From positions 1-64,000 of IMG/VR virus record IMGVR_UViG_2974574300_000001: DNA of 64,000 nt, one strand, 5' to 3'. This DNA comes from a virus. Lineage: Duplodnaviria > Heunggongvirae > Uroviricota > Caudoviricetes. The position numbers and the translations under genes are program-made. How positions within the stretch are numbered: position 1 is the stretch's first letter; the number at the start of each line of letters is the position of its first letter. This document shows positions 6,843 to 64,000 of the stretch, piece by piece. Under the pieces are notes generated by a model, which ran no database searches, was not told the DNA's origin, and saw nothing but the letters and a program-made list of their open reading frames with translations.

Positions 6843-8444
6843 ATGGACTTAAATGCTGTTAAGCAGAAGCGAGTGGAAGATGTTAGGAAAGTCCTAGCTG
6901 GAGAGTTGGGGCTTTCTGATGAAGTAAAAGAAATTATCAAATCATTCGGTAAAGACCCCTCTAAATTCCTTCCAACTCAAATTCTGACTTTATTAAGATA
7001 CACACCAGACCAAGTTCGCCTTATCTTTAAATTGATGACTGATAAGAACTATGTAGCCCCTCAGCCGGGTTCTCAAGAGGTCTTTTTAAACACTAATGCT
7101 GACTTGGTTCTCTATGGTGGTGCTGCTGGTGCTGGTAAGACTGCTGCATTGTTAATGGACTCTTTAAGATTTATTGAAGACCCTAACTATAATGCTGTGT
7201 ATTTCCGTCGAAACACAACACAGTTACAAGGTGGTTTATGGCCTGCTGCAAAGAAACTATTTGGTAAGTTTGGTGGGATTCCTCACGAGCAGAAAATGAC
7301 TATCACATTCCCTTCTGGGGCGACTATCAAGTTTACCTATCTAGAACTTGAAAAGCACGCTGAAGGTCATCAGGGTATTGAATACTCAGCTATTTACTTT
7401 GACGAAGGTACACACTTCTCTGCTTCACAGATTTCATACCTACAAACCCGTCTACGTTCTGGTGCTGAAGGTGATTCATACATGAAGATTTCCATGAACC
7501 CAGACAGAGACCACTTTATTTATGATTGGGTAGAGCCATTCTTAGATGAAGGAGGTTATCCAGACCCTGAAAAGTGTGGTCGTATTCGTTGGTATGTAAT
7601 GAATGATGGTGTGATGGTTTCTGATTGGGAGAGAGACAAGATTCTTGAAATGTTCCCTCTTGAGATTCCTCAAACATACACCTTTATCTCTGGTACGATT
7701 GATGATAACCCAATCCTTGACTTCTTAGAACCAAAGTATCGCGGTAAGCTTGAAAACAACACCCCTGTAAACGTTGCAAGACTTCGTTTCGGTAACTGGA
7801 AGGCTCGTGCAGAAGGTTCAAACTATTGGCAAAGACAATGGTGTGAGATTGTTGATTCACTTCCAGAAGATGTATTCGATGTTAGAGCATGGGACTTAGC
7901 AGCAACTTTACCATCTGAGATTAACCCTAATCCAGACTGGACAGCGGGTGTTAAGATGGGTAAATCTAAAAAAGACGGTTGCTATTATATCATTGATGTA
8001 GTAAGATTTAGAGATAGACCCTCTGGAGTCGAAACACAAATTAATTTGACTGCTGAAAGTGACGGTAAGCGAACTGGTATTTTTATCCCTCAAGACCCAG
8101 GCGCTGCTGGTAAATCCTACGCAACATCCCTCATCAGGAAACTTGCCGAGAAAGGCTATCGTGCAAGAGCTAAACCAACAAATAAAGATAAAGTTACCCG
8201 ATTTGCGGGGTTTTCTTCTGCTTCTGAAGCTGGACTTGTAAAAGTTTTGAGAGGTAGTTGGAATGAAGCTTACTTTCAAGAACTTGAAGGCTTTTGTGGT
8301 GATGGTAAAACTAAAGATGACCAAGTGGATGCTACCAGTGATGCTTTCAACAGTCTTAACGAAGTTAAATTATTCAAGCCACCATCAATGGGTGCTCACA
8401 CAGACTTAGTGAGAGGAAATCCATATGAGGGGCTTAGACGTTGA
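6843..8444 (+). CDS. terminase large subunit
   Basis: Walker A-like VLYGGAAGAGKTAAL near N-terminus, acidic nuclease-type motifs in C-terminal half; GGAGG RBS before ATG 6843. Confidence 0.85.
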   Translation: MDLNAVKQKRVEDVRKVLAGELGLSDEVKEIIKSFGKDPSKFLPTQILTLLRYTPDQVRLIFKLMTDKNYVAPQPGSQEVFLNTNADLVLYGGAAGAGKTAALLMDSLRFIEDPNYNAVYFRRNTTQLQGGLWPAAKKLFGKFGGIPHEQKMTITFPSGATIKFTYLELEKHAEGHQGIEYSAIYFDEGTHFSASQISYLQTRLRSGAEGDSYMKISMNPDRDHFIYDWVEPFLDEGGYPDPEKCGRIRWYVMNDGVMVSDWERDKILEMFPLEIPQTYTFISGTIDDNPILDFLEPKYRGKLENNTPVNVARLRFGNWKARAEGSNYWQRQWCEIVDSLPEDVFDVRAWDLAATLPSEINPNPDWTAGVKMGKSKKDGCYYIIDVVRFRDRPSGVETQINLTAESDGKRTGIFIPQDPGAAGKSYATSLIRKLAEKGYRARAKPTNKDKVTRFAGFSSASEAGLVKVLRGSWNEAYFQELEGFCGDGKTKDDQVDATSDAFNSLNEVKLFKPPSMGAHTDLVRGNPYEGLRR

Positions 8445-18097: not shown

Positions 18098-26113
<8,016 letters not shown>

Positions 26114-27332: not shown

Positions 27333-28694
27333 ATGGCAGATTACAAATTGAGTGAATTAAACTCAATCGATACAATCCGTTCAGACGACCTTCTTCATGT
27401 CAGGGTTAAAAAGAGACCTGAAATGCTGGGTGATGAAGACCGTCGAATGACCTATCAAGACTTCTTAGCATCTTTTAAGCTTGAAAGATTTGTTCAGATT
27501 GCTGGTAGTACTATGACTGGTGACTTAGGGATTGTTAAGTTACTTTATGGTGGTAAGGCAGTCTTTGACCCTACAGGCTCTTCCGAGATTACTATGGGGG
27601 ATGTTTTAAAGACTTTTAAAATTAATGCAAATGGTCTTAAACTAACTATTGCAGATGCTTCAAGGTCTGCAACTGTTTATCATACTCTTAATAAGCCAAG
27701 TCCTAATGAGCTTGGGATGAGAACTAATGAAGAGAATGATGCAAGATATGCAAGGCTTGCTGTCACAAACACATTCTCTGGGACTCAGAACATTCAAGGT
27801 GATGTTAACTTACTTCGCCTTAGAAACCAAAATGCAAATAATGCACAATATATTGAAGGTGTAGACCTAGATGGCTCGGCTAGATGGTTGGTTGGTATTA
27901 GTAAAAATGGTTCTGATGCAGTGCAGTTGTACAATAATAAATATGACTCAGCTTTGACTATTGCAAGTAATATCTCTGTTAATAAGTCTTTAGCAATCAC
28001 TGGTCAAGTCCAACCTTCGGATTTCTCTAACTTAGATGCTAGATACTTTACTCAGACAGTTGCTAATCAGAGATTTGCACAGTTAGCTGGGAATAACACT
28101 TTTACAGGTGCTAATACTTTCACTAACCTTGTTGTTAAGAAGAATGCTAATGCTATTACTTTGCAGAATACTGATGCAGGTACAGCACTTTATATTCTCG
28201 GTAAGAGGTCTGATGGAACAAATAAATGGTATGTTGGTACAGATTCTGATGAGACACGTCTGAACATTTATAACTACCTTACAGGTTCACAGGTTTCACT
28301 AGGGACTACTATTGGTATTAATAAAACCGTGCAAATCAATGGTCAAGTTCAGCCATCTGATTGGACTAACATTGACTCTAGATATATTCCGGCAGCAACA
28401 TTAAGTACAATTGCAAGAACTAATGCACAAAATACTTTTAATGGTGCGCAAACAGTTGTTAGTGATGGCGAAGGTTTAGTTATTAAAAACTCTACTCAGA
28501 ATAGGCCATTGTATATTCGTGGTAAGGACGCTGCCAATGTATCAAGATGGTGGTTAGGTGTTGGTGACCCAAATTCTACTGATGTAGCCTTAAACAACAG
28601 CTTCTCTGGCACTCAGTTAATTTTAGGTAACTCATCTGCAAGTATCAATAAGACATTAACCCTAGCAGCAGATTCAACCTTCAGATTTCTCTAA
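27333..28694 (+). CDS. tail fiber protein (shaft) with repeated QPSDxxNxDxRY linker motifs
   Basis: 453 aa; internal repeats INKSLAITGQVQPSDFSNLDARY and INKTVQINGQVQPSDWTNIDSRY; third copy is split between frames at the 3' end. Confidence 0.65.
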   Translation: MADYKLSELNSIDTIRSDDLLHVRVKKRPEMLGDEDRRMTYQDFLASFKLERFVQIAGSTMTGDLGIVKLLYGGKAVFDPTGSSEITMGDVLKTFKINANGLKLTIADASRSATVYHTLNKPSPNELGMRTNEENDARYARLAVTNTFSGTQNIQGDVNLLRLRNQNANNAQYIEGVDLDGSARWLVGISKNGSDAVQLYNNKYDSALTIASNISVNKSLAITGQVQPSDFSNLDARYFTQTVANQRFAQLAGNNTFTGANTFTNLVVKKNANAITLQNTDAGTALYILGKRSDGTNKWYVGTDSDETRLNIYNYLTGSQVSLGTTIGINKTVQINGQVQPSDWTNIDSRYIPAATLSTIARTNAQNTFNGAQTVVSDGEGLVIKNSTQNRPLYIRGKDAANVSRWWLGVGDPNSTDVALNNSFSGTQLILGNSSASINKTLTLAADSTFRFL

Positions 28695-52637: not shown

Positions 52638-53707
52638 TTAACCAGCACCCAATCTTTTTAGGTGGTGAGAGAAAAACTTTTGACTCACTTAATAAACACT
52701 ACCCAAAAATCTTTGAGCTTTATAAACAACAAAAAGCACAAGATTGGTCAGAAGATGAGTTCCCTTTTGAACAATCACGTCTTGATTTTGAGAGTGTCCC
52801 AGCATCAATGTCAGGTGTAATGCTTGAGATTCTTAAGTGGCAATGGGAAGCAGACACTCAAGTTGCTAAGAGCTTGGCATTTGCCTTTGCACCCTTTATC
52901 TCTGATGACATCTATGCAACTGCAATTATGAAGCAGTCTGAGATTGAAAACCTACATGCTCTTACTTACTCAGAGATTGTAAGACAATGTATTAAAAACC
53001 CTGAAACAATCTTAGATGAGATTAACCAGAATGTTGCTGTGCAAGACCGATTAAAAACTGTGAATCGTGTTCTTGAAGAATTACTGGATGAAGGGATAAA
53101 CTACCGACTGAGTTATGTCCGTGATTCACTTCTGGACAAAGACCCTTTACACTTCCATAAAGTTATTCTGAAAGGTCTGTTTGCAGTGACTGCACTTGAA
53201 GGTATATCTTTTATGGCATCCTTTGCATGTACCTTTGCACTTGATGCTCAAGATAAATTTCAGGGTATTGCTCAAGCTGTCCAGAAAATTATGCTTGATG
53301 AAATCCTTCACACTAAAATTGATATTGAAGTTTTAAAAGAAACTTTAAGAGATGATGAGTGGCAGAAAGCTTTTCAACAAATTCTTCCAGAGATTAAAGT
53401 AATCTTAGATGAAGTAGTTGAAAGTGAAGAAAAATGGTCGTATTATATCTTCTCCGAAGGACGTGCTGTAGTAGGCTTAAATACAAAGCTTCTTCATGAG
53501 TGGGTTTACTATAATGCTGCCCCACTGTATGATATGTTTGGCATTCAAAGAGATTTTGTAGCTCCTAAAGAACCACCTTTGAAGTATATGATTAAGAAGA
53601 TGGAAATTGATAAAGAGCAGAATGCTAATCAGGAGCAACAGAACGGTGCGTACCTATTGAATACTGTTGTAGATGATTTGAATAGTGGATTTTTAGAGGT
53701 TCCTTAA
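52634..53707 (+). CDS. nrdB: ribonucleotide reductase class I small subunit
   Basis: di-iron ligand-like E/H motifs, position after nrdA. Confidence 0.8.
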   Translation: MINQHPIFLGGERKTFDSLNKHYPKIFELYKQQKAQDWSEDEFPFEQSRLDFESVPASMSGVMLEILKWQWEADTQVAKSLAFAFAPFISDDIYATAIMKQSEIENLHALTYSEIVRQCIKNPETILDEINQNVAVQDRLKTVNRVLEELLDEGINYRLSYVRDSLLDKDPLHFHKVILKGLFAVTALEGISFMASFACTFALDAQDKFQGIAQAVQKIMLDEILHTKIDIEVLKETLRDDEWQKAFQQILPEIKVILDEVVESEEKWSYYIFSEGRAVVGLNTKLLHEWVYYNAAPLYDMFGIQRDFVAPKEPPLKYMIKKMEIDKEQNANQEQQNGAYLLNTVVDDLNSGFLEVP

Positions 53708-53949
53708 TGACTTATGTAATTTACTCCAAAACTGGATGCCCTCAGTGCGAGACCGCAAAGAATTTTGCAAAAGCTCGTGGTATTGACCATGTTGTGAGAA
53801 TGTTAGGGCAGGATTATGAGCTATCAGAACTAATGGATATTGCACAGATGCCAGTTCGTCAGATGCCATTCATCATGAAAACTGATGGACAAAACCTAAA
53901 ACCTGTTGGGACGCTACAGAATTTTATGGCAGAGGTGAATAATGCTTAA
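53707..53949 (+). CDS. glutaredoxin / NrdH-like redoxin
   Basis: CPQC active site at N-terminus. Confidence 0.65.
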   Translation: MTYVIYSKTGCPQCETAKNFAKARGIDHVVRMLGQDYELSELMDIAQMPVRQMPFIMKTDGQNLKPVGTLQNFMAEVNNA

Positions 53950-54148
53950 ACGCCTTTGGGAAGGTTTGGTTGTTGATGCACCAGCTATTGTGATTGGTAT
54001 GCTTATTGTTAACCTATTTACTGACTTTGAACAAGGTTCATTGTTTGGAGCCATGTTACTATGGGTTATCTTTGAAATATTAGAGATACAGTTAGGTATC
54101 ACTGAAAACCTAAGAGAACTCTTTGCGAAGTTTTCTAAAAAGATTTAA
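53942..54148 (+). CDS. small membrane protein
   Basis: hydrophobic 68 aa ORF. Confidence 0.4.
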   Translation: MLKRLWEGLVVDAPAIVIGMLIVNLFTDFEQGSLFGAMLLWVIFEILEIQLGITENLRELFAKFSKKI

Positions 54149-54155
54149 AATGAAA

Positions 54156-54178
54156 GGGTCTCTTCGGAGACCTTTTTA
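54156..54178 (+). terminator. rho-independent terminator
   Basis: GGGTCTC-TTCG-GAGACC hairpin followed by TTTTT. Confidence 0.65.
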
Positions 54179-54196
54179 GCATGTAAAGGGGCAATA

Positions 54197-55393
54197 ATGA
54201 ACAAAGTACAGATTATTAAAAAGAATGGCTCACTCGAAGAACCTGATATCAAAAAAGTTTTAGCAGCAGTCACAAAGTCAGCTAACAGAGTTGGTTATAA
54301 AGAGCTTCCACCAGATGTTACTCAAGCTCTTGAGTCAGCATTTATGAGGATTCTGGTAAAGTCCACTAAGCAGAATAATTTACTCATTTCAGTAAATGAT
54401 ATTCACAGTATTGTTGAGGGTGCTTTGGCAGAAGTCAATCACGAGATTTATGAGTCTTACTCAACATATAGAAATTACCGTAAAGAAGTTGCTCAGAATT
54501 GGGATGAACTCTACCAGAAGACCAAAGATACACTCTTCTTAGGTGACCGAGAAAACGCTAATTTTGACAGCAGTTTAATTTCTACAAAAGGTTCAATTAT
54601 TCGTGGTTATCTGACTAAAGAAATCTTTAAACAGTACCATTTAACACCAGAGGAACTTGAAGCCATTGAAAAAGGGTTTATCTATATCCATGATTTAAGA
54701 GACCTAATTTTTGGTGGTATCAACTGTTGCCTGTTTGACATTGGTAAAGTCCTGAAAGGTGGCTTTGAAATGTCTGGCATTGAATATTGTGAACCGAAGT
54801 CTGTACTGTCAGCCTTACAGGTTATTGGTGACGTAGTTCTTTCAGCAACTGCACAGCAATTTGGTGGCTTTACTTTAGCAGAGATTGATAAGGTACTTGT
54901 GCCGTATGCTAAGAAGTCTCTACGCTATCATGCTGAGAAAGCAACAGCTTATGGTATTCCTAAAGAACATTACCACAACTATGTCATGGAGCAGCTACAG
55001 ATTGAATTAACTCAAGGTTTTCAGTCTCTTGAAATGAAACTAAATACTGTACCTTGTAGCCGTGGTGATTTTGCATTCACAACTTTGACATTCGGGTTGC
55101 TTGACTCAGATATGTCTAATGAAGATAACCGACTGCAATACATGATTGCGAGCACTCTCCTAGATGTTCGTATGAATGGACAAGGTAAGAGCAAGAAGCC
55201 TGTTGTATTCCCTAAATTGGTTTATATTTATGACCAGAAGAGACACAATGAGAATATCTGTCAAGGCCACCTGTACAGTAAAGCTATTGAGTGTTGCTCT
55301 AAAGCTATGTATCCAGATTTCTTAAGTGTATCTGGACATGGTGCTGTAGCAGAGGCTTTTGAGCGTTCTGGCAAGGTAATTTCCCCGATGGGT
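54197..55393 (+). CDS. nrdD: anaerobic ribonucleotide reductase (class III), 5' exon
   Basis: ORF ends ...VISPMG then stop inside intron; downstream exon continues CRAFLSPY. Confidence 0.8.
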
Positions 55394-56135
55394 TAACAGG
55401 CTCTATAGCTCATCTAAAACGTGCCTAAACAGGGAAACTCTACAGATGTAGACAATCCTGTGCTAAATGATGTACGATGTAAGAAACTATACAACATAGG
55501 AGTCTTACATGCCAAACTATCACGTCACTGAAGATGGAAAAGTCTTTAGGGAAAATGGTGTAGAGCTTACGCAGTGGAAATCCAACACTGGGTATATGAA
55601 AGTGAGGTTTTACGGTAAGAAGAATCGTGACATGTATGTCCACAGGTTAGTTGCTGAGAAATATGTACCTAACCCAAATAATCTTCCAATTGTAAAACAT
55701 AAGGACGATAACAAACTAAATAACCACGCATCTAACTTAGAATGGGGTACTCATTCTGAGAATGCTAAAGAAGGTTATGAGAACGGATGCTACAAGTTCC
55801 ACAAGCGTTCATATGCCGTGAAAGCCACACACAAAGTGACAAAGGAAGTTATTGTTGCTAAGTCAATACGAGAGTTATCCAATATACTTGGACACAATCG
55901 CAAGACCATCTCTTCAATATTGAAGGGTGTAAAAGAGCATAATAACTTCGAATATGAGTTTGAATACATCTAAATGCCGAACGACTAACCGTGATGAATG
56001 TAGCGGTGTAGGGTCAAGCGACTCGAAATGGTACGCTACTTAGAAATAAGTAGAAGATATAGTCTGGACTTACTGGCGACAGTAAGCAGCTTGAATAAAG
56101 CGGGGTAAGCTTAGCGAACTTACCTGAACAACAAG
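55394..56135 (+). mobile_element. group I intron in nrdD
   Basis: exon ends with T, intron ends with G, in-frame join PMG|CRAFL; 5' core CTAAACAGGGAAACTCTACAGATGTAGACAATCCTGTGCTAAAT is, as best I recall, close to the T4 td intron core. Confidence 0.7.
55509..55973 (+). CDS. intron-encoded HNH homing endonuclease
   Basis: HKDDNKLNNHASNLEWGTHSEN HNH motif; located inside nrdD intron. Confidence 0.7.
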   Translation: MPNYHVTEDGKVFRENGVELTQWKSNTGYMKVRFYGKKNRDMYVHRLVAEKYVPNPNNLPIVKHKDDNKLNNHASNLEWGTHSENAKEGYENGCYKFHKRSYAVKATHKVTKEVIVAKSIRELSNILGHNRKTISSILKGVKEHNNFEYEFEYI

Positions 56136-57083
56136 TGTAGAGCATTTTTATCACCATACCATAACGAATATGGTGAAGAGTTTTATGTAGGTCGTGCTAA
56201 CATTGGTGCTGTATCTTTGAACTTACCAATGATTTACCAGTATTCTAAAGAGAATGGCTTAGATTTCTGGAAAGAGCTTGATAAGTACCTAGAAATGATT
56301 CGCAGCTTCCACAAGAAACGTTACGAAATGATTGCTAATATGCCAGCAAGTTCTAACCCTCTTGCATTCACACAAGGTGGTCTGTACAAAGGGAATAAGA
56401 AACCTACTGACAAGGTTGGCTGGGATATCGTGAAGTCCTTCACAGCTTCTTTTGGGGTTACTGCGCTTGATGAGCTAGATGTTCTTGCTGAAGGTAAACG
56501 ACTTCATGAAGTTGGAAGCTGTAGTTTTGCATATGATGTTCTGGAATATATCAACATGAAGACTGAAGAGTTTAAAAATGAAGATGGCTTCTTATATGCA
56601 GTCTATGGCACTCCAGCAGAATCACTTTGTGGAACTCAGCTAAAACAGTTCAGAGATATGTTTGGCGTTATCAAAGGCGTTTCTGACAAGGAATACTTTA
56701 CAAACAGCTTCCATATGAATGTTGCAGCCGACATTACACCATTTGAGAAGCAGGACTTAGAAGAACCCTTCTTCCATATCTGTAGAGGCGGCAGAATCCA
56801 GTATGTAAGAGTGGCTAATCCAGAAAACTTACCAGCACTTAAGAGTTGTATTACAAGAGGGATGTTGAAAGGTTTCTATCAGGGACTTAACTTTGACTTA
56901 GCAATCTGTGAGCATTGTGGCAACAGACCAAAGGCTGATGTTGAAGAATGTGAGGTTTGTCATTCACACGATATCTCTGTGATTAACAGGGTGTGCGGGT
57001 ACTTGTCATTCACAAAAATTAAAGGTCAGTCTCGAATGAATGACGCTAAGATGGCAGAAATTAAGGATAGGGTTTCTATGTAG
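56136..57083 (+). CDS. nrdD: anaerobic ribonucleotide reductase (class III), 3' exon
   Basis: C-terminal zinc ribbon CEHCG..CEVC and glycyl-radical motif RVCGYLS. Confidence 0.8.
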   Translation, partial: CRAFLSPYHNEYGEEFYVGRANIGAVSLNLPMIYQYSKENGLDFWKELDKYLEMIRSFHKKRYEMIANMPASSNPLAFTQGGLYKGNKKPTDKVGWDIVKSFTASFGVTALDELDVLAEGKRLHEVGSCSFAYDVLEYINMKTEEFKNEDGFLYAVYGTPAESLCGTQLKQFRDMFGVIKGVSDKEYFTNSFHMNVAADITPFEKQDLEEPFFHICRGGRIQYVRVANPENLPALKSCITRGMLKGFYQGLNFDLAICEHCGNRPKADVEECEVCHSHDISVINRVCGYLSFTKIKGQSRMNDAKMAEIKDRVSM

Positions 57084-57090
57084 AATACAA

Positions 57091-57648
57091 ATGAATTACG
57101 AACTAATATATAATGCAATTATTAAGAAGGCACATTCTGAAAGGGGTGTGCCTCTTACATACTACAAATGTCAAGGTAAGGGTTATGAAAGACACCATAT
57201 CATACCAGTGTGTCTAGGTGGCGATAAAATTAGTGGAGATAATATTGCTTTACTTACACCTAGAGAGCATTATGTAGCTCATAAATTACTGGTTAAGATG
57301 TATCCAAACAATCATAAGTTATGGTTTGCATGGAACAGGTTAGCTCATGATGGCCTAGATAGGAAAATATCATCCAGAGACTATGAAAAGGTAAGGGCTT
57401 TGAACTCGAAAGCTTCATCCATTGTGAATAAAGGTAGGGTTTTCACTGAAGAACATCGAAGACGATTAGGAGAATCTCAAATAGGTAATACAAAATCAAA
57501 AGGTTGTAAAAGGTCTATAGAAACAAGGAAGAGGATGTCAGAAGCCGGAAAAAAGCCAAAGAAAAAGAAAACTTGCCATCATTGTGGTATGACTGGTGGT
57601 GCTGGTAACATGACTCGATATCATTTTGACAATTGTAAGAAAAAATAA
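57091..57648 (+). CDS. HNH endonuclease with NUMOD3-like repeats
   Basis: ERHHIIPVCLGGDKISGDNIALLTPREHYVAH HNH motif; C-terminal basic repeats and CHHCG zinc finger. Confidence 0.55.
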   Translation: MNYELIYNAIIKKAHSERGVPLTYYKCQGKGYERHHIIPVCLGGDKISGDNIALLTPREHYVAHKLLVKMYPNNHKLWFAWNRLAHDGLDRKISSRDYEKVRALNSKASSIVNKGRVFTEEHRRRLGESQIGNTKSKGCKRSIETRKRMSEAGKKPKKKKTCHHCGMTGGAGNMTRYHFDNCKKK

Positions 57649-57722
57649 CCTTATGTAAAACTTGACAAGGCGGTGTAGGTCTTGATAGGCTTACATCACC
57701 TTTTTATTGGTGAGGTAACTAT

Positions 57723-58208
57723 ATGAATTACATGGAGATTAGACCATTTGACACAGCTAATGGTGAAGGGGTTCGTGTAAGCCTCTTCGTAGCTGGTTGT
57801 AAGCATCACTGTGAAGGCTGCTTTAACAGGGAGTCTTGGAAGTTTAATGCTGGTAAAGAGTTTACTTATGCAAACCTTTACGGGATTCTAAGACTTTTGG
57901 AAGATGATTCTTTAAGTGGATTATCTATTCTTGGTGGAGAACCACTAGATGACCGTAACGTTGAAGAGGTCACAAAGATTTGCCAGAAGGTAAAGTCTAT
58001 CTACCCAGAAAAATCTATCTGGCTCTGGACAGGTTTTCAGTTACACGAAAAAATTCACCTAGATGTGATGAAATATGTTGACGTGGTGATTGATGGTAAG
58101 TATGATTCATCTAAACCAACAGTTAAACCATATCGTGGTTCTGATAACCAAAACCTCTGGAGAAAAGAGTATGGGTGGCAAGGTGATTGTCAGTGGAGAG
58201 CCGAGTAA
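57723..58208 (+). CDS. nrdG: anaerobic ribonucleotide reductase activating protein
   Basis: radical SAM cluster motif CKHHCEGC near N-terminus; adjacent to nrdD. Confidence 0.8.
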   Translation: MNYMEIRPFDTANGEGVRVSLFVAGCKHHCEGCFNRESWKFNAGKEFTYANLYGILRLLEDDSLSGLSILGGEPLDDRNVEEVTKICQKVKSIYPEKSIWLWTGFQLHEKIHLDVMKYVDVVIDGKYDSSKPTVKPYRGSDNQNLWRKEYGWQGDCQWRAE

Positions 58209-58548
58209 GTCTCGTCGTAGAGTAGGTTACGGAAAAGGTGAGATAATGGTTCTTTCTTTTAACAGTGCTTTATTAGGTACTTACAAAGTTAAGACCGAAC
58301 TCCTTGATGAGTGGAGAAAGTATACAAACTCACTTTTCGGTAATGTTGGAATGGAAGCCTTAGCAGAGATTGAGAAGGCTGGAACATTTGAAGTTGTCGG
58401 TAAAGGTAACTACACAATGTTCTACAAAACAAATTTAAACGTTGGTGACAGTATTGTTGGTGTCACTGAAGAAGAACTTAAAACATTTTGTGAAAAGATT
58501 GAGAGAGATACGAAATGGGACTCTGGAACAGTTTTAAATCAAAAGTAA
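58171..58548 (+). CDS. hypothetical protein
   Basis: ORF trimmed to ATG with GGAGA RBS. Confidence 0.4.
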   Translation: MGGKVIVSGEPSKSRRRVGYGKGEIMVLSFNSALLGTYKVKTELLDEWRKYTNSLFGNVGMEALAEIEKAGTFEVVGKGNYTMFYKTNLNVGDSIVGVTEEELKTFCEKIERDTKWDSGTVLNQK

Positions 58549-58772
58549 AAGCAGCACTAGCTTCATTAGGTATGCTCACTGGTGTTGATGTGACTCATCT
58601 TATGCAGAACTTTAAGATGGATGAGAAGCTGGCTAATGAGATTATGAAAAGTATCTATGTAGGCCGTGGTAAAGGTGGTAAGAAACAAGCCCATCGTCCG
58701 TCTGGTGCAGCAGCTATTAAACGAGCAGCTAAGAAAGCTCGTAACCGTAAACGTAATAAGAAGGCTAAATAA
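58515..58772 (+). CDS. small basic protein
   Basis: Lys/Arg-rich C-terminus. Confidence 0.4.
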   Translation: MGLWNSFKSKVKAALASLGMLTGVDVTHLMQNFKMDEKLANEIMKSIYVGRGKGGKKQAHRPSGAAAIKRAAKKARNRKRNKKAK

Positions 58773-58774
58773 TC

Positions 58775-59095
58775 ATGAGCAAAATCTATAACACTCGCAA
58801 ATTACAGATTTTCGTACTGTGCCAGTTTATGGCTAAAGAATATAACTTCTACTATTGTGGTACAGGTTTTATTAGTGATGATGATGGTTCATATCTACCA
58901 TTTAAAGAAGCTGTGAAGCTCTTTAATGAAGAGAAAAACTCTAAGAAAGATATTGAAAAGGTTAAGCTAACCTACAGCAAGAAAGATAAGAAGATTATCT
59001 GCCTAGATAACTTTGTAAAAGTTACTGGAGAAGCAAAAGAGTTTATGGATGAGAGTGAGATTTCATTCACAAGCATCTTGAAAGTAGCTCAGTAA
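58775..59095 (+). CDS. hypothetical protein
   Basis: ORF. Confidence 0.4.
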   Translation: MSKIYNTRKLQIFVLCQFMAKEYNFYYCGTGFISDDDGSYLPFKEAVKLFNEEKNSKKDIEKVKLTYSKKDKKIICLDNFVKVTGEAKEFMDESEISFTSILKVAQ

Positions 59096-59107
59096 ACAGA
59101 TACTATA

Positions 59108-59137
59108 AGGGAACTGTAAAGGTTCCCTTTTTATTTT
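59108..59137 (+). terminator. rho-independent terminator
   Basis: AGGGAAC-loop-GTTCCCT hairpin followed by TTTTTATTTT. Confidence 0.6.
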
Positions 59138-59146
59138 GGAGATAAA

Positions 59147-59662
59147 ATGTATCTGTCAAACCTGAAACGTTCGGCTGCAATGTCAGTCCTAAGACTCAGC
59201 TTTGAGGAACGTCAAGAGTTCATTGACTCCCACCAATACGACCCTTCTAACTCGAATCACATGGTTCTTTGGAATCGTGATAACTTCCGTGAAAGAGCAC
59301 TTGTCCGTTATTACCCACACTACACAATAGATAACCTGTATGAATGGTGTGTTGTGAAGAACACTATTGCAACACTGAACAATCTTTGCAGGTATACAGG
59401 TAAGCAAGCATTTACATTAGGCCACCACAAACCTGTTACAAAGGGTGGTGAGCATCACTGTGCAAACTGGTTTATCCAGACTAAGCTCGATAACCAGAAG
59501 CAAGGAGATAACCTTCTAAGCACACCTAAGATGACCTATGAAGAGCAAGAGAAATATATCAAAAATAATATGCCAGATGTGCTTGACAACAACTATACAG
59601 ATTTGGCAATATCTCTCCTGTTGAAGTTCGAGACAGTTTATAGGGCAACTTATAATGGCTAA
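59147..59662 (+). CDS. HNH nuclease-like protein
   Basis: LGHHKPVTKGGEHHCANW...N..K motif resembling HNH. Confidence 0.4.
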   Translation: MYLSNLKRSAAMSVLRLSFEERQEFIDSHQYDPSNSNHMVLWNRDNFRERALVRYYPHYTIDNLYEWCVVKNTIATLNNLCRYTGKQAFTLGHHKPVTKGGEHHCANWFIQTKLDNQKQGDNLLSTPKMTYEEQEKYIKNNMPDVLDNNYTDLAISLLLKFETVYRATYNG

Positions 59663-59933
59663 AGAGAAGTGGAAGATTTTACCATTAGTCAGTGAAGGTG
59701 GTAATGGTTGTGAAATGTACATGATACGTGGTCATGTTCCAGAACCAATTGCACTTGAGATGGTAAACAACTTTACAGATGGCTCTTACAAAGACTTAGG
59801 GGAGCCAACTATAAAGCAGCAATGGGTAAAGCCTGTACCAGACAGCACAGGTAACTGTAGTGTACTTTATCACGTTGTAGACCCTGCAAAATGCAAATCT
59901 GCAATGGCAGTAACAAACGTAACTTTTGATTGA
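59655..59933 (+). CDS. hypothetical protein
   Basis: ORF. Confidence 0.4.
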   Translation: MAKEKWKILPLVSEGGNGCEMYMIRGHVPEPIALEMVNNFTDGSYKDLGEPTIKQQWVKPVPDSTGNCSVLYHVVDPAKCKSAMAVTNVTFD

Positions 59934-59944
59934 GAGAGAAAACT

Positions 59945-60826
59945 ATGAAAACATCTATCCGTGTTACAGTTCATTCACCAACTAAAGGGACTCATGAAGA
60001 AGAGTTTAACATCGTCCAATTTCCTTCTGGTGAGATTGGTGGACATTTTTCACCAGAGTTTGTTGATTTTACTGCTTATGCTGCATCATCCATCAACAAC
60101 GTGATTATGATTGTAAAGGGTTATGACAAAGACACATTATTTGCTGTGGCACTTGCTAAAGAGGCAATTGATGATTTAGTACCTCATAAGTTTGCTATGA
60201 AGACTGCTATCTTTTACTATTTGCCAAATGCACGTTACGACCGTCACATGTTTAAAGGCGATGCAGCAGCTTTGAAAGTGTTTGCACAACAGGTTAATGC
60301 AATGGGTTTTGATGCAGTCTGTGCAGTTGACCCTCATAGTTACGTTCCAGATAACCTTTTCAACTGCTTCCAGAGTATTCCTCAAAAGGAGATTGCAGTC
60401 CACTATGCAAATGACCCTCTGATTGATTACTTAGTAGCCCCAGATGCAGGTGCTTCTAAGAAGATTGCAGAGACTGCTAAAGAGGTGGATAAACCATATA
60501 TCACAATGTCTAAAGTACGCAACCTTAAGACTGGTGAAATAACTGGTATGCGAATCCTTGATGATGTTGATTTGACAGATAAAACTGTCATGATTCTTGA
60601 TGATATTTGTGATGGTGGTCGAACCTTCGTAGAAGCAGCGAAACATCTTCGTGAAGCAGGTGCAAAACGTGTGGAACTTTATGTAACACATGGTATCTTC
60701 TCTAAAGATGTTGAAAACCTTCTTGACAATGGTATCGACCATATTTACACTACAAACTCTTTAGGCGAAGCTAAAGACCGTGGCTTAACACATTACAGTC
60801 AAGTTACTGTAGCAAACCTTGATTAG
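59945..60826 (+). CDS. prs: ribose-phosphate pyrophosphokinase (PRPP synthetase)
   Basis: PRTase motif VMILDDICDGGRT, VDPHS and APDAGASKK regions resembling Prs. Confidence 0.7.
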   Translation: MKTSIRVTVHSPTKGTHEEEFNIVQFPSGEIGGHFSPEFVDFTAYAASSINNVIMIVKGYDKDTLFAVALAKEAIDDLVPHKFAMKTAIFYYLPNARYDRHMFKGDAAALKVFAQQVNAMGFDAVCAVDPHSYVPDNLFNCFQSIPQKEIAVHYANDPLIDYLVAPDAGASKKIAETAKEVDKPYITMSKVRNLKTGEITGMRILDDVDLTDKTVMILDDICDGGRTFVEAAKHLREAGAKRVELYVTHGIFSKDVENLLDNGIDHIYTTNSLGEAKDRGLTHYSQVTVANLD

Positions 60827-60834
60827 GTAACAGT

Positions 60835-61326
60835 ATGAATAAGGGTTATTTTGAAAGATACCTAATATATGAACCAGATACAGGTTTATTAATTTGGAGA
60901 GTAACCCTTTGCAGTACCGCTATTGCTGGTAATGTGGCTGGCACAAGGTCTAAGAAGGGTTATATCCAAGTCCAGATAAATAAGAAGAGGTACTATGCAC
61001 ATAATATTGCATGGATTATGTCTGGAGGTGAGATACCAAGTGGATATGAGATAGACCACATAGACCTTGATAAATCTAATAATAAGTTGGAGAATTTAAG
61101 ACTTAGCACAAAGTCACAAAATCAGAGGAATAGGGGTATATACAAGAATAATAAAACTGGTGTGAAGGGTGTAAGTTTTTGTAAACAAACAGGTCTTTAC
61201 AAAGCAAGAGTCATGCTTTACCATAAAGAATACTTTTGTGGAAGATTTAAAACGGTAGAAGAAGCAAAAGAAGCTGTAATTAAAAAGCGAATAGAACTTC
61301 ATGGTGAGTTTGCAAGACATAACTAA
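60835..61326 (+). CDS. HNH-AP2 homing endonuclease
   Basis: EIDHIDLDKSNNKLENLR HNH motif and C-terminal AP2-like GVKGV...EEAKEAV...LHGEFA. Confidence 0.75.
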   Translation: MNKGYFERYLIYEPDTGLLIWRVTLCSTAIAGNVAGTRSKKGYIQVQINKKRYYAHNIAWIMSGGEIPSGYEIDHIDLDKSNNKLENLRLSTKSQNQRNRGIYKNNKTGVKGVSFCKQTGLYKARVMLYHKEYFCGRFKTVEEAKEAVIKKRIELHGEFARHN

Positions 61327-61340
61327 GAGAGAGATAAAAT

Positions 61341-63122
61341 ATGAGTAAGTCACTTTACGCAGTACCAGCAGGTCTTAATGCAGATGCTTACAAGGCATCA
61401 CATATATATCAGTATCCAGATGCTACGCAATATCTTATGTTGAACCTGACACCACGTAGTGATAAATGGTTTAACAGTCCTTTAGCAATTGACGGTGTAG
61501 TGGCTTTTGGTATTCAACGTTTTGTTAAAGATTACTTGATAGACCACTGGAACGCCACTTTCTTTGAACGTGATAAAAAAGAAGCAATTGATGAAATCTT
61601 AGAAGTCATGAATGGTGTTCTGGGTAAAGATGCTATCGGTCGAGAGCATTGGGAAGCACTTCACGACTTAGGTTATCTACCAGTTGAAGTATACGCTGTA
61701 GAAGAAGGCACAGTTGTCCCTATGCGTGTTCCAATGATTGTCTTCCAGAACACTGTTTCAGGTTTCCATTGGGTAGCAGGTTATCTGGAAGATGCTTTCT
61801 CTGCTGAGATTTGGAAGGCTTGCACCATTGCGACTATCGCATTGCACTACAAACGTATCTGTAAGAAGTGGGCTGACCTTACTTGCGACAACGACTTACA
61901 TTTACCTTATCAGTGCCATGACTTTGCTATGCGTGGTATGTCCGGCTTTACTGATGACGCATTTAATGCTGTAGGTCACTTAACCAGCTTTAAAGGGACT
62001 GATAGCTTCCCTGCTGTATACACAGCTAAACGTATCTATGGACAGTCTTGCCCAATCTCTGATATTGGCAGTTCTGTACCAGCCACTGAACACTCTGTGA
62101 TGTGTGCAAACATTGCTTGGGAAGGTGGTAACGAGTTGGTTGAAGAAGAAAGACGATTTAAAGGTGAGTTGCAAACCTTCCGTCGTTTCTTAACAGAAAC
62201 TTACCCAACTGGTATTGCAAGTATTGTTTCAGATACTTATAACTTCTGGAGAACTGTGTCAGAAATCTTACCAGCACTTCGTAAAGAAATTATGGAACGT
62301 GATGGTAAGCTGGTAATTCGCCCTGACTCTGGAGACCCTGTACATATTGTCACAGGTTATAAAGCAATCCACTTAGAGTGTGCTAAAAAGGCTTACTACG
62401 AGCACCTAAGCAAGCTAGAGGCAAGTGATACAATGCTGAACTCTGTCCTGAACATGAAGCTTGAAAACATTAGTTACGGTATTGCTGGATGGCTACTGTC
62501 AGAAGGCTACGAGATGGTTGTTGACAGAGAAGACTTTGGAGTTGCTGATACAGTGATGTTGAAAAATGCTTATATGGTTGGTTCTGCAAACGTTGTAACA
62601 CGTCCTGTAGCTGAAATTGATGGAGCTATTAAGACACTGTACAACATCTTTGGGGGAACTATTAACTCTAAAGGATTTAAGGTACTTGATGAGCACATCG
62701 GCCTTATCTATGGTGACTCTATCACGCTGGAACGTGCAAACGAAATCCTGAAGCGTCTGTATGAAATGGGTTTTGCAAGCTCTAACGTAGTGTTTGGTGT
62801 AGGCTCTTACACTTACCAGTACATGACTCGTGACACCTTTGCATTTGCTGTCAAAGCAACTCTTGCAAGCATTGGTGGTAAAGAGATTATGCTTGCAAAA
62901 GACCCTAAAACAGATAGTGGTGTTAAGAAGTCTGCCTTTGGTGGTGTAGCACCCATGTGGGATGGTGATAAGCTGAAAGCTGTAGATGGCTATGGATTCC
63001 GGAGTTTTGCAGATGTACTTGACCACCCAGCTTGTGCTTTACGTTTAGTCTTTAGCGACTCTGAGCAGTTCGGTTATACAACTCTTGGTGATATTCGAAA
63101 CAATATTGACAAGCAGCTTTAA
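61341..63122 (+). CDS. nadV: nicotinamide phosphoribosyltransferase
   Basis: conserved Nampt blocks DAYKASHIYQYP, HDFAMRGMS, FKGTDS, VPATEHS, VSDTYNFW, VIRPDSGDP. Confidence 0.85.
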   Translation: MSKSLYAVPAGLNADAYKASHIYQYPDATQYLMLNLTPRSDKWFNSPLAIDGVVAFGIQRFVKDYLIDHWNATFFERDKKEAIDEILEVMNGVLGKDAIGREHWEALHDLGYLPVEVYAVEEGTVVPMRVPMIVFQNTVSGFHWVAGYLEDAFSAEIWKACTIATIALHYKRICKKWADLTCDNDLHLPYQCHDFAMRGMSGFTDDAFNAVGHLTSFKGTDSFPAVYTAKRIYGQSCPISDIGSSVPATEHSVMCANIAWEGGNELVEEERRFKGELQTFRRFLTETYPTGIASIVSDTYNFWRTVSEILPALRKEIMERDGKLVIRPDSGDPVHIVTGYKAIHLECAKKAYYEHLSKLEASDTMLNSVLNMKLENISYGIAGWLLSEGYEMVVDREDFGVADTVMLKNAYMVGSANVVTRPVAEIDGAIKTLYNIFGGTINSKGFKVLDEHIGLIYGDSITLERANEILKRLYEMGFASSNVVFGVGSYTYQYMTRDTFAFAVKATLASIGGKEIMLAKDPKTDSGVKKSAFGGVAPMWDGDKLKAVDGYGFRSFADVLDHPACALRLVFSDSEQFGYTTLGDIRNNIDKQL

Positions 63123-63136
63123 AAGTATATGATAAG

Positions 63137-63160
63137 AGGCTCCTACGGGAGCCTTTTTAA
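63137..63160 (+). terminator. rho-independent terminator
   Basis: AGGCTCC-TACG-GGAGCCT hairpin followed by TTTTT. Confidence 0.65.
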
Positions 63161-63175
63161 TTTCTGGAGAAAGAC

Positions 63176-63511
63176 ATGAAAATCAAAGAGATGAATATTA
63201 ACGTTGTCTTGGAAGAACGCTGGGAAAACATTAAGAAACCTGAAGATGGTAAAAAGTTTCTTAACAAAATTTTAGTAGCAGCTAAAGAAGAACTGACGGG
63301 TAAGGTTGCAGCAGCAATCACAATAAAGGTTTGTGTAAAAGGTCTTCCACAACATCACCAATTTGCACTTGACGAGTTTAAAGAAAGCTTCTACAATCCA
63401 AACAAACAGATGCTTGAAAGTAACTTTGCAGTGTCTACAAGTATCGTCCATGACAGAAGCTTTATCCTTTACAAAAACATGAGAGGTGAGTCATGCAAGC
63501 ATATTGGATAG
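63176..63511 (+). CDS. hypothetical protein
   Basis: ORF. Confidence 0.4.
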   Translation: MKIKEMNINVVLEERWENIKKPEDGKKFLNKILVAAKEELTGKVAAAITIKVCVKGLPQHHQFALDEFKESFYNPNKQMLESNFAVSTSIVHDRSFILYKNMRGESCKHIG

Positions 63512-63669
63512 AAATTTTACTGTCACTTGGTAGTGTAGCAGTATTTGTTTACCTTCTTTGCAAGTACTATGCAGAGCACAAGAAGTGTGACTACTGCAAC
63601 GGAGAAGGGTATACAAGAGCAGGTTGTTGCCCTATGTGTGGCGGTTCTGGTAAAATGTTTAATAAGTGA
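63493..63669 (+). CDS. small membrane-anchored zinc-ribbon protein
   Basis: 58 codon ORF, hydrophobic helix then CDYCNGEG...CCPMCGG. Confidence 0.3.
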   Translation: MQAYWIEILLSLGSVAVFVYLLCKYYAEHKKCDYCNGEGYTRAGCCPMCGGSGKMFNK

Positions 63670-63697
63670 TTTAACAGTAAACTAAGAGGAAAGTATT

Positions 63698-64000
63698 ATG
63701 CGCATGGTAAACGACCACGCAGAAGTGATTAAGAGTTCAACTTCTTTAGAGACGTCTCAAGCACAGATTACAATGACACCTGAAATGTTCAGCCTTCTGA
63801 GTTCTGGTGTATACACATTCAAAGAAAGGGCAGTGATTCGTGAGCTGTCATGTAATGCAGTAGATGCTCAGAAAGAAGCTGGAAAAGAGAACATCCCATT
63901 CCATGTGCATTTACCTACTCGATTTGAGCCTTACTTTGAAGTCCGTGACTTTGGAACTGGTTTAACCCATGACAAAGTAATGAGTTTGTACCTGAACTAC
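63698..64000 (+). CDS. partial ORF, GHKL ATPase-like N-terminus (possibly rIIA-like), truncated by window end
   Basis: RBS AAGAGGAAAG before ATG; IRELSCNAVDA resembles GHKL N-box. Confidence 0.3.
   Translation, partial: MRMVNDHAEVIKSSTSLETSQAQITMTPEMFSLLSSGVYTFKERAVIRELSCNAVDAQKEAGKENIPFHVHLPTRFEPYFEVRDFGTGLTHDKVMSLYLNY

Follow-up and report, generated by a model that had tools for sequence, protein, structure and literature searches.

What does a phage make when it encodes a ribose-phosphate pyrophosphokinase (Prs)-family enzyme close to a nicotinamide phosphoribosyltransferase (Nampt)-family enzyme? The question is raised by a locus at positions 59945-63122 of a 64,000-nucleotide stretch of viral DNA (Caudoviricetes; IMG/VR record IMGVR_UViG_2974574300_000001, positions 1 to 64,000), which we refer to as the window. 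A first-pass annotation, made from the letters alone, had taken this gene pair for an anti-defense module of the NARP2 type that makes nicotinamide mononucleotide (NMN) from nicotinamide and ribose-5-phosphate. The anti-defense part of that proposal is right, while the chemistry and the family that it named are wrong. As we will argue, the locus is very probably the NARP1 operon of a Felixounavirus, for reconstitution of nicotinamide adenine dinucleotide (NAD+). The feature is already known in the sense that the same locus was tabulated from near-identical phages in the paper that discovered this pathway.

Three open reading frames (ORFs) lie where the first-pass annotation had put them: 59945-60826 (293 aa), 60835-61326 (163 aa), and 61341-63122 (593 aa), the first and last of which indeed belong to the Prs and Nampt families. 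The + strand carries every gene between 59.1 and 63.2 kb, and the features of this region that are described below are read on that strand. As the intergenic gaps measure just 8 bp (between the first enzyme gene and the middle gene) and 14 bp (between the middle gene and the second enzyme gene), only the middle gene, which encodes an HNH endonuclease, separates the two enzyme genes. The first enzyme gene starts with an ATG at 59945 that is preceded by a GAGAGAGAAAACT leader and agrees with the start (MKTSIRV) annotated in relatives; an alternative TTG at 59930, upstream of this ATG, overlaps the stop codon of the preceding ORF. A query with the surrounding 4 kb matches Salmonella virus VSe11 at 99.5% identity, and the locus is matched in 259 phage records, nearly all of the Felixounavirus (Felix O1) type. 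On the permuted VSe11 genome, the complete window runs from position 20,900 through the last base and continues over the first 319 bases. Judged by these matches, the window phage is a Felixounavirus.

Osterman et al. assigned the Pfam pair Prs plus Nampt, represented by genes 79-80 of phage Bas63, to NARP1 and named the enzymes Adps (ADP-ribose pyrophosphate synthetase) and Namat (nicotinamide ADP-ribose transferase) (bioRxiv 10.1101/2024.02.11.579819). Their supplement identifies Bas63 as Escherichia phage JohannRWettstein (accession MZ501086), and lists proteins of VSe11, VSe102, and Mushroom as Adps with a Namat nearby and as Adps-associated Namat (bioRxiv 10.1101/2024.02.11.579819). For VSe11, these are _00139 (Adps, Namat vicinity 'Yes') and _00141 ('Adps-associated' Namat), the skipped number being the HNH gene (bioRxiv 10.1101/2024.02.11.579819). 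A Namat homolog is found in the immediate vicinity of 97% of the Adps-clade genes (bioRxiv 10.1101/2024.02.11.579819); in the window, namat starts 514 bp past the adps stop codon, on the same strand and with one gene in between. NARP2, on the other hand, consists of Nampt and an NMN adenylyltransferase (Nmnat) without Prs, so the NARP2-type assignment has to be given up. All features of NARP1 that can be tested on a sequence are present in the window, and neither of the two NARP2 features was found (for the Nmnat, within the ORFs scanned as described below).

The first of these enzymes, Adps (59945..60826), was assigned on orthology, scores, and residues. It shares 80% amino-acid identity with Bas63 gp79 at equal length (293 aa), and the VSe11 protein in the Adps table of Osterman et al. 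is one residue off (over the text shown). In BLASTP, it scores 149 bits against Ro1 Adps and 99 bits against SPbetaL1 Adps, versus 66 bits against E. coli Prs; identity and scores, rather than a tree, thus place it in the Adps clade and not among cellular Prs enzymes. A check against profiles of the Prs and Nampt families, as suggested in the first-pass annotation, came out positive at the family level only: the Adps product passes the ribose-phosphate diphosphokinase subfamily model TIGR01251 (125.9 bits; cutoff 113), with further matches to PF00156 and PF14572, and the namat product passes NF006629 (470 bits; cutoff 405), along with PF04095 and PF18127, but none of the equivalog-level Prs models is reached by Adps (42-106 bits against cutoffs of 296-536; best 105.8 against 296). 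K190 of Adps aligns with the catalytic K162 of the SPbetaL1 enzyme (the residue mutated there, corresponding to K197 of B. subtilis Prs), and R97/D99/R100, H131, D167, and D219-D220 are conserved with Prs. According to the alignment, the phosphoribosyl-binding loop (MILDDICDGGRTF; 60590..60628) is altered with respect to Prs, reading DDMIDTGGT in E. coli Prs, DDLSSFGGT in SPbetaL1 Adps, and DDICDGGRT in both the window and Bas63. Instead of the D-T-G-G-T that forms the ribose-5-phosphate loop of cellular Prs, the window protein therefore has D-G-G-R-T, a difference that may relate to the binding of ADP-ribose (ADPR) rather than ribose-5-phosphate. A search of solved structures with the window Adps returned no close Adps homolog, the best match being a Sulfolobus Prs (2.1e-19).

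The second enzyme, Namat (61341..63122), is supported by orthology, a structure match, and residues. Its amino-acid identity to Bas63 gp80 is 97%, again at equal length (593 aa), and among solved structures the SPbetaL1 Namat (9W5W/9W5X) is matched at 1.8e-129, compared with 7.6e-52 for a Xanthomonas Nampt and ~1e-41 for human NAMPT. The catalytic core is conserved (D15, Y17, F195, R198, D221, H251, R327, and D329), including the positions of the SPbetaL1 core that were tested (F189, D215, R306, and the catalytic His), with R327 equivalent to R306. The Nampt motifs that the first-pass annotation regarded as unambiguous thus stand as far as the family match and the catalytic core are concerned, but the clamp helix is of the Namat type and the Nampt-type motif is absent. 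Namat proteins have a selectivity-clamp helix (SCH) with the consensus G-S-X-phi-X-phi-X-phi-T-R-D, where X is aromatic (Nucleic Acids Res. 2026, PMC12774641). Translation of 62802..62834 (aa 488-498) gives GSYTYQYMTRD, which fits this published consensus, with Met at phi3 versus the usual Asn or Val. At the same position, SPbetaL1 Namat has GSFTYQYNTRD, whereas the true Nampt of Xanthomonas has GGALLQKVDRD. The selectivity-clamp loop (SCL; TPRSDKWFNSPLAIDG; 61449..61496), located by alignment, is identical to that of Bas63, and its K42-W43 align with R40-V41 of SPbetaL1. When the third position of the clamp loop is Lys or Tyr, the fourth residue stacks on the adenine, as in Bas63 (PMC12774641); the K42-W43 loop conforms to this rule and is accordingly predicted to stack in the same way. 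Being Adps-associated, equipped with the Namat clamp, and nearer to the SPbetaL1 Namat structure, the window gene falls outside the PRPP (phosphoribosyl pyrophosphate)-using Nampt clade, a placement that does not include a direct comparison with KVP40 Nampt.

Namat of the window also contains a lineage-specific insertion of 88 aa (aa 340-427; 62358..62621) between the RPDSGDP strand and the next helix, and a smaller one of ~21 aa (aa 258-278; 62112-62174). Both are missing from SPbetaL1 Namat (491 aa) and present in Bas63, and because of the latter they are no argument against function. A tblastn search recovered the 88-aa insertion from 252 records, all of them Ounavirinae-type phages, where it takes two forms that are ~50% identical, and Pfam finds no domain within it. 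Separately, one PHROG family (phrog_12872, 547 aa) is matched by Adps in its first half (profile positions 52-224) and by Namat in its second half (236-534), which points to fusions of Adps with Namat in some phages; in phrog_16547 and phrog_15800, Namat seems to be split into halves.

The activities of the two enzymes have been studied in relatives, and orthology together with the conservation of residues lets us infer their function in the window phage. The Prs-like enzyme of SPbetaL1 converts ADPR into ADP-ribose pyrophosphate (ADPR-PP), and yielded no detectable product when a control substrate replaced ADPR (bioRxiv 10.1101/2024.02.11.579819); this substrate is ribose-5-phosphate in the figure legend and PRPP in the main text of the preprint (bioRxiv 10.1101/2024.02.11.579819). 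The Nampt-like enzyme of SPbetaL1 then forms NAD+ from ADPR-PP and nicotinamide (bioRxiv 10.1101/2024.02.11.579819). In vivo, Bas63 lacking genes 79-80 suffers a ~20-fold plating loss on SIR2-HerA (bioRxiv 10.1101/2024.02.11.579819), while in a set of high-throughput Bas63 knockouts, single deletion of g79 or g80 cut plating on Sir2-HerA by 10^4- to 10^6-fold (bioRxiv 10.1101/2024.10.10.617714). Bas63 overcomes SIR2-HerA even in a host without pncC and nadR (bioRxiv 10.1101/2024.02.11.579819), which argues that NMN is not the relevant product. Orthology to this characterized locus bears out the general idea of the first-pass annotation, namely that the module rebuilds NAD+ against NAD+-depleting defenses. 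The same orthology speaks against a synthesis of NMN from nicotinamide and ribose-5-phosphate, as the orthologs make ADPR-PP and then NAD+ directly.

In the window phage, the pathway would thus start when a host SIR2, TIR, or SEFIR effector cleaves NAD+ into ADPR and nicotinamide. Using ATP, Adps (59945-60826) is predicted to pyrophosphorylate ADPR to ADPR-PP. Namat (61341-63122) would then clamp the adenine of ADPR-PP between the K42/W43 loop and the GSYTYQYMTRD helix and swap the pyrophosphate for nicotinamide, resulting directly in NAD+. PRPP, NMN, and an Nmnat would play no part in this scheme.

Among the alternatives, the one that fares best is classical salvage of the NARP2 type, in which the Prs-like enzyme makes PRPP, the Nampt-like enzyme makes NMN, and an adenylyltransferase of the phage or the host completes NAD+. 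Pfam, NCBIfam, and PHROG all name the two proteins Prs and Nampt, and the TIGR01251 score is over its cutoff, yet we consider this route very unlikely. Besides the missing equivalog-level Prs match, the adenine-clamp motif in Namat, the lack of detectable control product with the SPbetaL1 enzyme, and the ADPR-PP formation and independence of pncC/nadR seen for the Bas63 orthologs, the route is at odds with the gene content of the phage. The first-pass annotation had proposed to look for an Nmnat elsewhere in the genome; no CTP_transf_like (PF01467) or NadR family was found by Pfam in 24 + 28 ORFs of at least 110 aa (from the window and the remaining 21 kb, respectively), a scan that covered ORFs outside the structural module and the already-assigned genes (nrdA/B/D/G), took the missing part of the genome from the 99%-identical relative VSe11, and left six families, all with E > 0.0036, undisplayed for the first set. 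For comparison, 94% of the phages with a KVP40-type Nampt have an Nmnat (bioRxiv 10.1101/2024.02.11.579819). The NARP2 of Vibrio phage KVP40 shares with the window a Nampt-family enzyme and the restoration of NAD+ against NAD+-depleting defenses, but it starts from PRPP, makes NMN, needs the phage Nmnat, and raises NAD+ even in the absence of a defense system, whereas the window has an Adps and a Namat-type clamp, and an Nmnat was not found in its scanned ORFs. Moreover, the two pathways were never seen together in one phage in the discovery paper, where this lineage is listed as NARP1.

A second alternative is that the module is not an anti-defense system at all, but provides general metabolic support by raising NAD+ for replication in any host. 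Its position would suit such a role, as a nucleotide-metabolism block (nrdA/B/D/G) lies upstream of the locus, and KVP40-type salvage sets a precedent for raising NAD+ without any defense system. We nevertheless regard this as barely plausible, since ADPR-PP appears in infected cells only when a defense system and both genes are present (bioRxiv 10.1101/2024.02.11.579819), and NARP1 does not produce excess NAD+ in defense-free cells (bioRxiv 10.1101/2024.02.11.579819). In addition, g79 and g80 of Bas63 are dispensable on plain hosts (bioRxiv 10.1101/2024.10.10.617714), in contrast to the strong need for them on Sir2-HerA hosts.

The assignment to NARP1 leans on two reference systems, to which the window is related to different degrees. 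The NARP1 of Bas63 is from the same genus and has the same position (after nrdD/nrdG and genes 77-78, before rIIA/rIIB), the same gene lengths, and a Namat that is identical to that of the window in its clamp loop, clamp helix motif, and both insertions. It differs in having a 45-bp GC-hairpin spacer where the window has the 492-bp HNH gene, another allele at the 5' end of namat (first ~90 nt; 78%), and a divergent allele of the 5' two-thirds of adps. In this last region (59945-60500, set against 27747-28300 of the Bas63 piece compared), nucleotide identity between the two phages is 56-68%, compared with >90% in the 3' third of adps and in namat. The phage collection divides in two by Adps identity, with 154 records at >=90% and 97 at 60-90%, a pattern that indicates allele replacement or recombination inside adps. 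The NARP1 of Bacillus phage SPbetaL1 (genes 190-191) shares the two-gene order, the catalytic Lys of Adps, the Namat core, and a GSxTYQYxTRD helix with the window. Unlike in the window, however, its genes overlap with nothing in between, its clamp loop uses R40 rather than K42-W43, and its proteins are only 35% (Adps) and ~42% (Namat) identical to those of the window.

Several points weigh against our assignment. The in vivo data were obtained with the endonuclease-free Bas63, and the in vitro as well as the structural data with SPbetaL1, and it is from these that we infer the function in the window phage. The in vitro work on Adps in particular was done with the 35%-identical SPbetaL1 enzyme and not with Bas63 Adps (bioRxiv 10.1101/2024.02.11.579819). 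With the N-terminal two-thirds of the window Adps so strongly diverged from Bas63, a shift in substrate preference is formally conceivable. Furthermore, Namat can still convert PRPP to NMN in vitro, about half as actively as human Nampt (PMC12774641), so that some formation of NMN is possible. Finally, a spacer hairpin that is conserved in endonuclease-free relatives is lost from endonuclease-bearing genomes, which could change the relative expression of Adps and Namat.

This leads to the gene between the two enzymes. The cassette (60827..61340), delimited by its domains and by comparison with relatives, consists of an 8-bp leader, the HNH ORF (60835-61326), and 14 bp with the ribosome-binding site (RBS) of namat; it starts directly after the adps stop codon and stops at the namat leader. 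The product of 163 aa matches PF13392 HNH_3 (69.6 bits; cutoff 24.8) and the HNH endonuclease family phrog_99 (2.9e-68). The first-pass annotation had described it as an HNH-AP2 homing endonuclease: the HNH part and its place as the sole gene in between hold, but PF00847 AP2 scores only 20.9 bits (E = 4.5e-4), and as this is under the gathering score of 33.3, the AP2 call is tentative. The ORF is intergenic, has a weak RBS, and is present in 60 records, Felix O1 and Mooglevirus Moogle among them, versus 259 records with the locus. In the endonuclease-negative Bas63, Alf5, and Shy, a spacer of 45-46 bp takes its place; it contains a conserved GC hairpin (-11.5 kcal/mol) and runs into the GAGAGAGA namat leader. 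Its domain and its distribution identify the HNH gene as a homing endonuclease of the free-standing kind. A role as an accessory in ADPR processing, as for the extra genes of the NARP1-AP and RyDEP loci, was considered and rejected in view of the clear HNH_3 endonuclease match and the presence/absence polymorphism.

Could the arrival of such an element have disabled the pathway? The two enzyme genes appear to belong to a five-gene unit that is enclosed by two terminator-like hairpins, where promoters and terminators were called as consensus matches. The upstream boundary is predicted at 59107..59129 (AAGGGAACTGTAAAGGTTCCCTT then TTTATTTTGG, 9 pairs), and the end of the unit at a strong hairpin 12 bp past the namat stop codon (63134..63157; a 10-pair stem then TTTTTAATTT; -16.6 kcal/mol, z = -4.0 versus shuffles). 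Sigma-70-like matches abut both hairpins: TTGAAA-17-TACTAT (from 59078) before 59107, and TTGACA-16-TATGAT (from 63106; 11/12) before 63134. Each end of the unit may thus be a compact junction of terminator and promoter. As the consensus scan gave no convincing terminator between adps and namat, the operon is most likely still one expression unit. That the insertion uncoupled or silenced the operon, leaving a non-functional pathway, is scarcely credible, for although the conserved spacer hairpin is gone and the enzyme genes are now 514 bp apart, both ORFs are intact and full length, with all tested catalytic residues and GAGAGAGA-type leaders of their own, Namat is still 97% identical to the Bas63 protein, and annotated copies of both enzyme genes occur in each of the ten hit rows with annotation across the full 4-kb query (VSe11, VSe102, PMBT20, two Mushroom, GEC_vB_B1, GEC_vB_BS, GEC_vB_NS7, and two VpaE1 records; for Felix O1 and Moogle, the comparison was of the adps-namat junction only).

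The endonuclease seems to have left its mark on the start of namat. We compared alleles in six genomes, namely the endonuclease-positive window, Felix O1, and Moogle, and the endonuclease-negative Bas63, Alf5, and Shy. In the first 90 nt of namat, the endonuclease-positive genomes are 93-98% identical to each other, even though they span genera, and 76-81% identical to the endonuclease-negative ones. Over nt 91-330, identity tracks phylogeny, Moogle being 82-84% identical to each of the other five. These observations are consistent with homing and co-conversion of the flank, and the variable segment at about nt 49-102 of namat (61389..61442) is, on this allele pattern, a likely target or immunity region of the endonuclease. 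The endonuclease would probably cut genomes that lack its gene, at a site within or close to the first ~100 nt of namat, and spread together with this flank by recombinational repair. Database-wide, 86 records carry the window-type 5' allele and 32 that of the Bas63 type, from which it follows that further alleles exist. A strict tie of the allele to the endonuclease gene does not hold, since 86 records have the allele and 60 the gene.

Free-standing homing endonucleases of phages are known from T4, where they are encoded by the seg and mob genes. Like these, the window element is an intergenic HNH ORF with a one-site presence/absence polymorphism in close relatives and a short co-inherited flank in the neighboring gene. 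Unlike them, it shows an imperfect link between flank allele and endonuclease across the database, and its cleavage activity and target site are predicted. Other parts of the window hold similar elements. The nrdD gene is split into two ORFs (54197-55396 and 56217-57083) with an HNH ORF between them (55509-55973), where Bas63 annotates a join. Rfam gave no match at the gathering threshold over 53000-64000, but a sub-threshold group I intron match lies inside nrdD (55906-56086; 33.1 bits with a gathering threshold of 50; E = 1.9e-6). A homing-endonuclease-like ORF at 57040-57648 (NUMOD3 motif; phrog_655, 9e-57) extends over the 3' end of nrdD and is followed by nrdG, and a Pfam scan of the window found a GIY-YIG SegE-like ORF and a second HNH_3/AP2 ORF elsewhere. 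With these additional ORFs, the genome can be called rich in homing endonucleases.

The upstream part of the predicted unit contains two more genes, which give context to NARP1 without being part of it. The first (59147..59662, 171 aa) is the ortholog of Bas63 gene 77, with 92% identity to bas63_0077; it belongs to phrog_3500 and has a weak match to an HNH-endonuclease PHROG and another to DUF7167. Bas63 gp77, described as GIY-YIG, is reported to counter retron Ec67 with a 10-fold effect on the efficiency of plating (bioRxiv 10.1101/2024.10.10.617714). The second (59655..59933, 92 aa) is the ortholog of bas63_0078 (99% identity), falls into phrog_4726 (unknown function), and has no Pfam match. 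Since g79 and g80 of Bas63 counter Sir2-HerA and gp77 counters retron Ec67, the neighborhood is rich in counter-defense genes. In Escherichia phage ESCO50, four extra genes (131-154 aa; positions 644-2370 of the piece compared) lie between the gene-78 ortholog and adps. Pfam gave nothing informative on these four genes, whose presence marks the site directly 5' of adps as a variable cargo spot.

Extra genes have also been described in other NARP1 loci, where they have a role in the chemistry. Both NARP1-AP (Adps-Adpp-Namat, as in Vibrio phage Gary) and the RyDEP NARP1 loci resemble the window in having an additional gene between or beside adps and namat (bioRxiv 10.64898/2026.01.28.702374, 10.64898/2026.05.28.727677). 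Their extra gene encodes a Macro-domain phosphatase or a RyR-domain glycosidase, whereas that of the window encodes a homing endonuclease that is unconnected with the chemistry of ADPR. No Macro domain was found in the window ORFs within two genes of NARP1. A Macro-domain protein is encoded further away: VSe11 gp012 (261 aa, annotated as 'phosphatase') matches PF01661 with 30.1 bits (cutoff 22). No other Macro protein was found; this one lies ~7.5 kb downstream of namat across the permuted end, outside the window (6943-7728 of the VSe11 piece compared). With Adpp of Vibrio phage Gary, a validated ADPR-1''-phosphate phosphatase, it shares 28% identity (E = 2e-14), and with the Macro protein linked to NARP1 in phage PN09, 34% (E = 5e-19). 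Possibly, Felixounaviruses run a dispersed NARP1-AP, in which gp012 would convert ADPR-1''-phosphate (ADPR-1P) to ADPR for use by Adps and Namat, extending protection to RES-type defenses; such an arrangement would be missed by the published survey, as this was limited to within two genes of NARP1. We think this speculative and on balance unlikely. The Macro family of gp012 occurs in 2810 phage records, many of them T4-like or other large myoviruses (whose NARP1 carriage was not checked), and its commonness in phages seemingly without NARP1 makes the link weak.

What the finding offers is first of all a correct annotation. The names ribose-phosphate pyrophosphokinase, nicotinamide phosphoribosyltransferase, and nadV still imply a PRPP/NMN salvage, and the first-pass annotation arrived at the wrong pathway because it followed such database names. 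Filed under NARP1, the locus has ADPR and nicotinamide as predicted substrates, would be active only once a defense has cleaved NAD+, and should share the known weakness of the pathway, namely its failure against RES-type defenses that produce ADPR-1P. The cassette between the enzyme genes, in turn, provides a small and testable case of a selfish element beside an anti-defense operon, which would move part of that operon between phage genera. As phages of the Felix O1 type are used in Salmonella typing and biocontrol, NARP1 also predicts which host defenses they can override.

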